Virus record (IMG/VR): IMGVR_UViG_3300035498_001143
Origin: a virus
Lineage: Duplodnaviria > Heunggongvirae > Uroviricota > Caudoviricetes
Strand: one strand, 5' to 3'
DNA: 11,668 nucleotides
In this document: in pieces, positions 501 through 660 of the stretch
Numbering within the stretch: position 1 is the stretch's first letter
How the letters are laid out: each line of letters starts with the position of its first letter
Translations under genes and position numbers: made by a program
Notes under the pieces: model-generated
Databases searched by the model: none
Seen by the model: only the letters and a program-made list of their open reading frames with translations
What the model was told of the DNA's origin: nothing

Positions 501-660
501 GTATTAATACTAATATATTGGAAAGTAAATGTGCATATTGTTCAGTCTGATTCAATTTTATTTCAAGTATTAATACTAATATATTGGAAAGTAAATACAG
601 GCAGACCGCAGCAATTTGAGTTTGATATTAATACATTAAAATTACAATTGTAACTTATTT
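501..660 (+). CRISPR. CRISPR mini-array without adjacent cas genes (2 perfect repeats, 1 degenerate repeat, 2 spacers)
   Basis: GTATTAATACTAATATATTGGAAAGTAAAT is exact at 501-530 and 567-596. Spacer 1 is 531-566 (36 nt) and spacer 2 is 597-632 (36 nt). A degenerate copy starts at 633, keeping the 66-nt period (10/14 matches over repeat positions 3-16). The repeat resembles clostridial type I-B repeats ending ..GTAAAT (from recall). Confidence 0.85.

Follow-up and report, generated by a model that had tools for sequence, protein, structure and literature searches.

A short, apparently cas-less CRISPR array with strain-variable spacers in a roughly 500-kb phage of animal guts

Medvedeva and co-workers are said to have found in 2019 that the mini-CRISPR arrays of the Sulfolobales viruses SPV1 and SPV2 demonstrably target close kin, and these arrays are thought to take part in inter-virus conflict. 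In bacteria, the C. difficile phage CDKM15 and the phiCD630 prophages carry cas-less arrays with 34-37-nt spacers, decaying last repeats and a leader of ~215 nt, and the spacers of these arrays are directed against other phages, with a CCN PAM (PMC5127024). Huge phages encode compact arrays, with a median of six repeats and no interference or adaptation genes, and it has been proposed that these phages turn the Cas proteins of their hosts on competitors (Al-Shayeb et al. 2020, PMC7162821). RNA anti-CRISPRs and viral crRNA-like regulators are repeat-bearing RNAs, in some cases array-like, that engage host Cas proteins; they bear fixed, often shortened spacers against host cas or toxin promoters (preprint 10.1101/2024.10.29.618823). 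Here we describe a short CRISPR array in a viral DNA record (IMGVR_UViG_3300035498_001143); by the window we mean the whole stretch analysed, 11,668 nucleotides.

The array has likenesses to each of these systems. Like the C. difficile phage arrays, it is phage-borne with no cas genes found, and has an I-B-type repeat ending in GTAAAT, spacers of 34-37 nt in its lineage, a decayed last repeat and a leader of hundreds of nucleotides; a CCA-flanked candidate target here corresponds to the spacers matching phages there. Unlike those arrays, its 30-nt repeat carries an A at position 24 and differs in the 5' half, it belongs to a ~500-kb phage in which the unit is present in several copies, its leader of ~425 nt opens with a GC-rich block, and just one candidate target was found. 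With the huge-phage arrays (PMC7162821) it shares a huge phage as carrier, small array size and the absence of detected interference and adaptation cas genes, but host use was inferred there from repeat identity with host arrays, whereas no host array was found here. The likeness to SPV1 and SPV2 lies in a one- or two-spacer array on a virus without cas genes; those viruses are archaeal with another CRISPR type, and kin targeting is hinted at here by one sister-strain spacer only. As in the RNA anti-CRISPRs, for which engagement with host Cas is known, the viral RNA would be repeat-bearing and array-like; unlike them, the locus has full-length, strain-variable spacers instead of solitary repeats or fixed spacers. 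Borrowing of host Cas by phage arrays is a known strategy, and this array adds no new principle to it. It goes beyond the known cases in being present in several copies, in having a long leader that includes a conserved folded block, and in belonging to a megaphage.

Within the window, the 30-nt repeat GTATTAATACTAATATATTGGAAAGTAAAT occurs twice without a mismatch in either copy (Table 1), bearing out the two identical repeats of the original prediction; 200 shuffles gave 0 such matches. The same prediction had placed a decayed third repeat at an exact 66-nt period. At that place (633-662) only 12/30 letters agree with the repeat, a score reached by 28% of window positions, and this match is chance. 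A better candidate for the terminal repeat lies at 625-654, with 17/30 letters, a score as high as which is found at only 0.6% of window positions, and with the 5' 9-mer of the repeat, TATTAATAC, retained. Because of this better candidate, the predicted second spacer is ~28 nt long, not 36 nt, so that of the two 36-nt spacers expected the first stands and the other becomes a remnant in a shared trailer. In the window and in orthologous arrays of three and nine repeats we see near-identical direct repeats within the 23-47 nt range, separated by unique spacers of similar length, 34-37 nt in the orthologous arrays; an AT-rich leader and its promoter flank the window array at one end and a probable degenerate repeat at the other. 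In the independent JGI contig L093 (sample 3300035495) the array recurs without a single base changed, leader through downstream gene, so the window array is no assembly artefact. Over 2.1 kb, L093 differs from the window by a 25-nt insertion at 1753, at the end of a 112-aa ORF, and otherwise by one base. We conclude that this is a genuine short CRISPR array, with one working spacer and an old remnant.

Table 1. Features of the CRISPR unit, in window positions
Feature	Positions	Strand	Remarks
sigma-A-type promoter of the CRISPR unit	75-103	+	TTGACA, 17 nt, TATTAT; extended TG; 11/12 of consensus
GC-rich conserved block, 5' end of leader transcript	131-270	+	nearly invariant in 4/4 units
AT-rich leader with hairpins	305-500	+	hairpin 455-473; last ~45 nt before repeat 1 conserved
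CRISPR repeat 1	501-530	+	exact 30-mer
Spacer 1, sole strain-specific spacer	531-566	+	36 nt; not in the sister strain
CRISPR repeat 2	567-596	+	same letters as repeat 1
Oldest-spacer remnant, within conserved trailer	597-624	+	identical in L093 and L098; sister strain without 598-609
Probable decayed terminal repeat	625-654	+	17/30 to the repeat; keeps TATTAATAC
GC-containing hairpin closing the unit	711-736	.	11-bp stem; sole terminator-like site in 1-1500

A protein search of IMG/VR returned four viral records (G001-G004) that do not differ from one another across the 14.6-21 kb under comparison and whose identity to the window is 81-92%; we refer to them as the sister strain. At the syntenic place the sister strain has nine repeats and eight other spacers of 34-37 nt, and L098, another JGI contig, shows three repeats with two different spacers at this locus, against the two repeats and one spacer of the window and L093. 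Leader and trailer are common to all three strain versions, and the spacers (one, two or eight) are entirely different. The spacer content at this one locus varies between strains (window/L093, L098 and G001), whereas the repeats, the leader and the trailer persist. Downstream of the final repeat in the sister's nine-repeat array, the trailer is 100% identical to window 610-760, and differs from the window trailer only by a 12-nt indel, CAGGCAGACCGC, positions 598-609 being missing; in L098, the third strain variant, the window trailer is found unchanged. Because the trailer is common to all versions, the predicted second spacer and third repeat are the fixed old end of the array and no recent capture. 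Full replacement of the spacers among near-identical strains, with the trailer anchored, is how an active CRISPR array behaves. A more distant relative, L100, whose DnaE PHP domain (residues 1-146) is 75% identical, has no CRISPR unit at the syntenic site, and the promoter-leader-array unit has been gained or lost within the lineage, since it is absent there from between the flanking genes. These genes lie only 108 nt apart in L100 (L100:6249-6357).

The sister genome encodes two more arrays (B and C), of three and eight repeats, 22 and 76 kb away. Both sit behind the same ~425-nt promoter-plus-leader unit, each has its own repeat variant, 1-3 bases different, and in both the terminal repeats are decayed with only the 5' part kept. 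No protein family is common to the neighbourhoods of the three sister arrays. The sister array at the syntenic locus (array A, L012:8272-8824) mixes two repeat variants, one in repeats 1, 2 and 9 and the other in repeats 3-8. This mix suggests recombination between arrays, because polarised acquisition cannot yield it. The window repeat has its closer match in the distant array C of the sister (1 mismatch), the syntenic array A being 2-4 mismatches away.

When the four units (window and sister arrays A, B and C) are aligned, homology begins a few bases upstream of the -35 box and continues unbroken for ~425 nt, from the promoter to the first repeat. Sequence upstream of the promoter is unrelated among the four units, unlike the block at 131-270. 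In the hairpin at 455-473, pairing is preserved across the alignment through two double substitutions, the stem reading TTGATA/TATCAA in the window and array B versus TTAGTA/TACTAA in arrays A and C. The orientation of promoter and leader, and that of the C. tetani repeat described below, both back the plus-strand polarity that had been predicted. The hairpin that closes the unit is also the terminator for a convergent minus-strand gene (724-1353). Rfam had no match for the leader block 131-270 and gave none or noise for the whole window and for the array alone; no Rfam CRISPR-DR family matches the array. The promoter of the unit is of the same class (repeat family D2) as those of three terminator-promoter cassettes at window 4081-8078, in which a GAGAGA..TCTCTC hairpin is followed by TTGACAAA..TATAAT and which lie between unknown paralogues.

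The closest published repeat found by text search is that of the type I-B system of C. tetani E88, GTATTAGTAGCACCATATTGGAATGTAAAT, which is likewise 30 nt long and is 24/30 identical to the phage repeat in an ungapped comparison. The two share the 5' GTATTA and a 3' ...ATATTGGAA.GTAAAT, and the I-B repeats of C. septicum and C. difficile have the ...GGAATGTAAAT end in common with the phage repeat. At position 24, every phage copy has A where the clostridial repeats have T. The spacer lengths of the arrays agree with those of C. difficile I-B. The phage repeat does not fold stably (-1.1 kcal/mol, z -0.07), and unfolded repeats are usual for clostridial I-B systems. In C. tetani E88 the repeat adjoins a cas6-csx8-cas7-cas5-cas3-cas4-cas1-cas2 operon (PMC6677821); unlike the phage repeat, from which six substitutions separate it, it is chromosomal and stands beside a full cas operon. 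The similarity to a repeat that adjoins a type I-B cas operon supports a clostridial I-B repeat type. Other searches with the repeat were negative. The exact repeat has no match in the IMG/VR collection, from which the window's strain is absent. Its 3' 20-mer has three matches in the JGI metagenomes, all chance, in a collection without the phage's own contig L093 that makes for a weak test. The 3' 13-mer and 5' 10-mer led to no CRISPR match in the published literature, and BLAST of the arrays against phages and plasmids returned noise only.

We found no Cas protein among the nine ORFs of the window with Pfam, and PADLOC, applied to eight of these ORFs, returned nothing beyond a Cas4 match at noise level (E 0.003), in agreement with the original reading of the window as free of cas genes. 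The wider genome was scanned in the sister strain rather than in the window's own genome, using G001 (379,029 bp) and 72,348 bp from G003. The resulting 451,377 bp make up ~90% of the parent JGI contig Ga0484759_000001 (502,690 bp), of which ~51 kb lie outside the scan. Cas6 (two models), Cas7/DevR, Cas5, Cas3-HD, Cas1 and Cas2 were all absent from these 451,377 bp, while the control genomes were detected. The lack of cas genes seen in the window thus extends, for six families, to 451 kb of a ~503-kb sister genome. Adjacent cas6-cas8b-cas7-cas5-cas3 genes occur neither in the window nor in the 451 kb of the sister genome. The window array is an orphan array and not a complete I-B locus.

The sister strain consists of IMG/VR viral records with virion structural protein matches (phrog_8510, E 1e-23), upholding the view that the genome is phage-like; one terminase family was not detected in it. 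The carrier of the array is a roughly 500-kb phage of animal guts. A Lak-type phage was considered and ruled out, as there is no stop-codon recoding and there is a single tRNA in the 379-kb G001. At the start of G001, a TnpB/IS605-family gene (L046:655-1755) lies at the very point at which IMG/VR divided the 502,690-bp contig to give a 379-kb 'provirus'; this TnpB gene is multicopy, and thousands of copies in bacteria, including one named Lachnospiraceae, share ~70% identity with it. The window itself, with a GC content of 18-30%, encodes a thymidylate-synthase-like protein, a radical-SAM-like protein, four unknown paralogues and an intein-bearing DnaE. The radical-SAM-like gene (2764-4072; phrog_9298, E 3e-42) is absent at the sister's position, where the BLAST alignment jumps from 2763 to 4073. 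In the DnaE gene (9211-11667) an intein spans residues ~147-490 and a second begins at ~745; in L100 and L101, DnaE is split into an N-terminal gene of ~500 aa and a separate C-terminal gene.

For spacer 1 we identified one candidate protospacer, in two short contigs of 185 and 174 nt, one from each of two gut RNA-library runs, both of which agree with window 532-568 apart from two differences; the runs are possibly of one sampling campaign, and the contigs form one pair only. The flanks of the match in these contigs are non-repeat and mutually dissimilar. Spacer and candidate protospacer agree at 33/36 positions or better, differing at position 1, where the protospacer has A and the spacer G, and at up to two others. 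The 5' flank reads ...CCTCCA, then A, placing CCA in the three nucleotides before the protospacer on the spacer strand. This flank fits the CCW form of the C. difficile I-B PAM, given as CCW/CCN (PMC5127024). On the reverse strand the candidate protospacer lies in a frame, ...LEIKLNQTEQYALEVIAHEN*, that is open in all visible codons to a stop 8 codons past the match. The spacers had been read as coding fragments. The reverse complement of spacer 1, EIKLNQTEQYA, is indeed the frame of the candidate protospacer, but the second spacer, as part of the shared trailer, is no recent capture. The proposed search for targets with a consistent PAM gave CCA at the one candidate of spacer 1, and a single chance match in IMG/VR. 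That match, in L065, is 19 nt exact and 28/36 overall and lies inside a metallophosphatase-like gene of an unrelated contig of 33% GC, and we treated it as chance.

Apart from the spacer 1 candidate and the sister spacer B_S2, the 22 spacers have no match in the window, in the sister genome or at any further locus compared. IMG/VR gave no target for spacer 1 or for the sister spacer C_S6, the latter recovering array copies only, and no target match was found among the INPHARED phages (window array and sister array A) or in PLSDB (window array). Neither flank of the candidate protospacer has a match in IMG/VR, the protospacer does not occur in the sister-strain records, and its peptide does not occur in the sister genome. 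A gene lying 1.4 kb from the array that contains spacer B_S2 matches this spacer, in frame, at 28/34 positions and at 23/24 in one stretch, which was equalled in 0-1 of 300 shuffles. Coming after 17 spacers had been tested, this match is suggestive and is the only hint of kin targeting. It faintly hints at alleles of kin phages as a possible source of some spacers. The spacers have a mean GC of 30.5%, against 25.8% in random 35-mers of the sister genome (P 0.006), an excess that is ambiguous because the phage structural region is also GC-richer.

The host is probably a low-GC Firmicute, likely of the Clostridia, judging from the sigma-A-type promoters, the GGAGG ribosome-binding sites, which occur both in the window and at the candidate target, the repeat type and the Lachnospiraceae-named TnpB homologues. 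Matching the repeat to a host array, as originally suggested, did not succeed. The tandem 3' 12-mer of the repeat gave 8 matches in 185,579 species genomes, none of them a CRISPR array, and among these genomes no bacterial array carries it in tandem at CRISPR spacing. Contigs assembled from animal-gut RNA libraries hold window 145-530. One of these, X1, equals the window leader at 218-432 with 0 differences, and others are 88-92% identical and run past repeat 1 into different spacers. These contigs show more strain or array diversity and show that leader and array are joined in library molecules; being assembled, they cannot prove transcription, strand or processing. The libraries do not cover 800-3000, which is no evidence of silence, and no DNA run is listed for 1400-9200. 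A freshwater run (X3, a small share) contributed only ~35-nt pieces of low identity and says nothing on habitat.

Overall, the array probably borrows host type I-B Cas proteins against competing mobile elements, the phage being cas-less in the sequence scanned. Window 75-736 is one complete CRISPR unit, made up of a strong sigma-A-type promoter, a ~425-nt leader, two repeats around one spacer, the remnant, the decayed repeat and a terminator, and in this model it would be transcribed from the plus strand. Host type I-B Cas6 would then cleave the repeats to leave an 8-nt 5' handle, AAGTAAAT, and the crRNA would enter host Cascade and bring Cas3 to DNA in which a CCW PAM adjoins the protospacer. 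This DNA would belong to a competing phage or to some other mobile element of the same gut community, and host Cas1-Cas2, possibly with Cas4, would add new spacers at the leader end. We infer the use of host Cas, the processing, the interference and the nature of the target. The original interpretation holds in large part, with use of a host I-B Cascade as its proposed mechanism. The array of the window strain, reduced to one spacer, may be decaying.

This last point could be carried further, to a non-functional copy whose spacers would have been lost through recombination between repeats and which the phage would carry as a passenger, leaving the work to its other arrays. One spacer remains against eight at the same locus in the sister strain, decay is visible in the trailer, and the absence of the unit from the syntenic site of L100 implies a dispensable locus. 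Yet both repeats are exact, promoter and leader are intact, and RNA-library contig X1 is identical to the window's leader; the single spacer is strain-unique and leader-proximal, so a recent acquisition is likelier here than a leftover. We regard a dead copy as distinctly unlikely. The conserved end of the array bears on another possibility, that the arrays produce anti-defence RNA which floods or reprogrammes host Cas, as Racr-like decoys or Cracr-like silencers of cas or toxin genes, and do not attack competitors. The terminal unit, with repeat 2, a short 28-nt 'spacer' and the degenerate repeat, is kept across strains and has an outline like that of crRNA-like mini-arrays, and several units with a near-consensus promoter would suit such a role. 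Viral crRNA-like arrays that compete for Cas proteins have been described (preprint 10.1101/2024.10.29.618823), and huge-phage arrays have also been suggested to silence host systems (PMC7162821). We nonetheless find this unlikely, given full-length spacers (34-37 nt) that differ wholly between strains, as expected of acquired guides and not of fixed regulators, a 12-nt indel that hits the 5' (seed) end of the conserved remnant, and a near-full-length match of spacer 1 to a coding gene with a proper PAM.

The phage might instead be self-sufficient, with cas genes or an unrecognised RNA-guided effector elsewhere in the same genome. There is room for them in the ~51 kb of the sister genome and the greater part of the window's genome that lie outside the cas scan, this variant of the repeat occurs in the phage lineage alone, the majority of megaphage proteins belong to no known family, and the genome has TnpB genes. 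TnpB, however, relies on its own guide RNA rather than on CRISPR repeats, the 451 kb scanned lack all six core Cas families, and no gene family is common to the three sister array neighbourhoods, and we consider a self-sufficient system very unlikely. More speculatively, the private repeat and the ~425-nt leader with its folded block might together form an autonomous phage RNA module, whose leader would recruit or trap host Cas or which would work with an unrecognised phage effector. We hold such a module to be rather improbable; if real, it would differ from the plain Cas borrowing of the C. difficile phages. That the locus is no CRISPR array, and that its repeats are a chance or regulatory tandem duplication, could be argued from the presence of just two repeats in the window and the lack of an Rfam CRISPR-DR match. 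This reading is effectively refuted by the strain variants, with their variable spacers of constant length, and by the likeness to a cas-linked clostridial repeat, that of C. tetani; the conserved leader and the protospacer match also speak against it, and we give it almost no weight.

With borrowing of host Cas as the preferred reading, our analysis extends cas-less phage arrays from the ~50-kb C. difficile phages to a ~500-kb gut megaphage. This megaphage keeps several units and renews its spacers quickly, with three spacer sets at one locus among near-identical strains. The conserved, structured leader has a possible role in array expression or in the recruitment of Cas proteins. If the host is found, the spacers would be a direct record of the mobile elements that compete with megaphages in animal guts.
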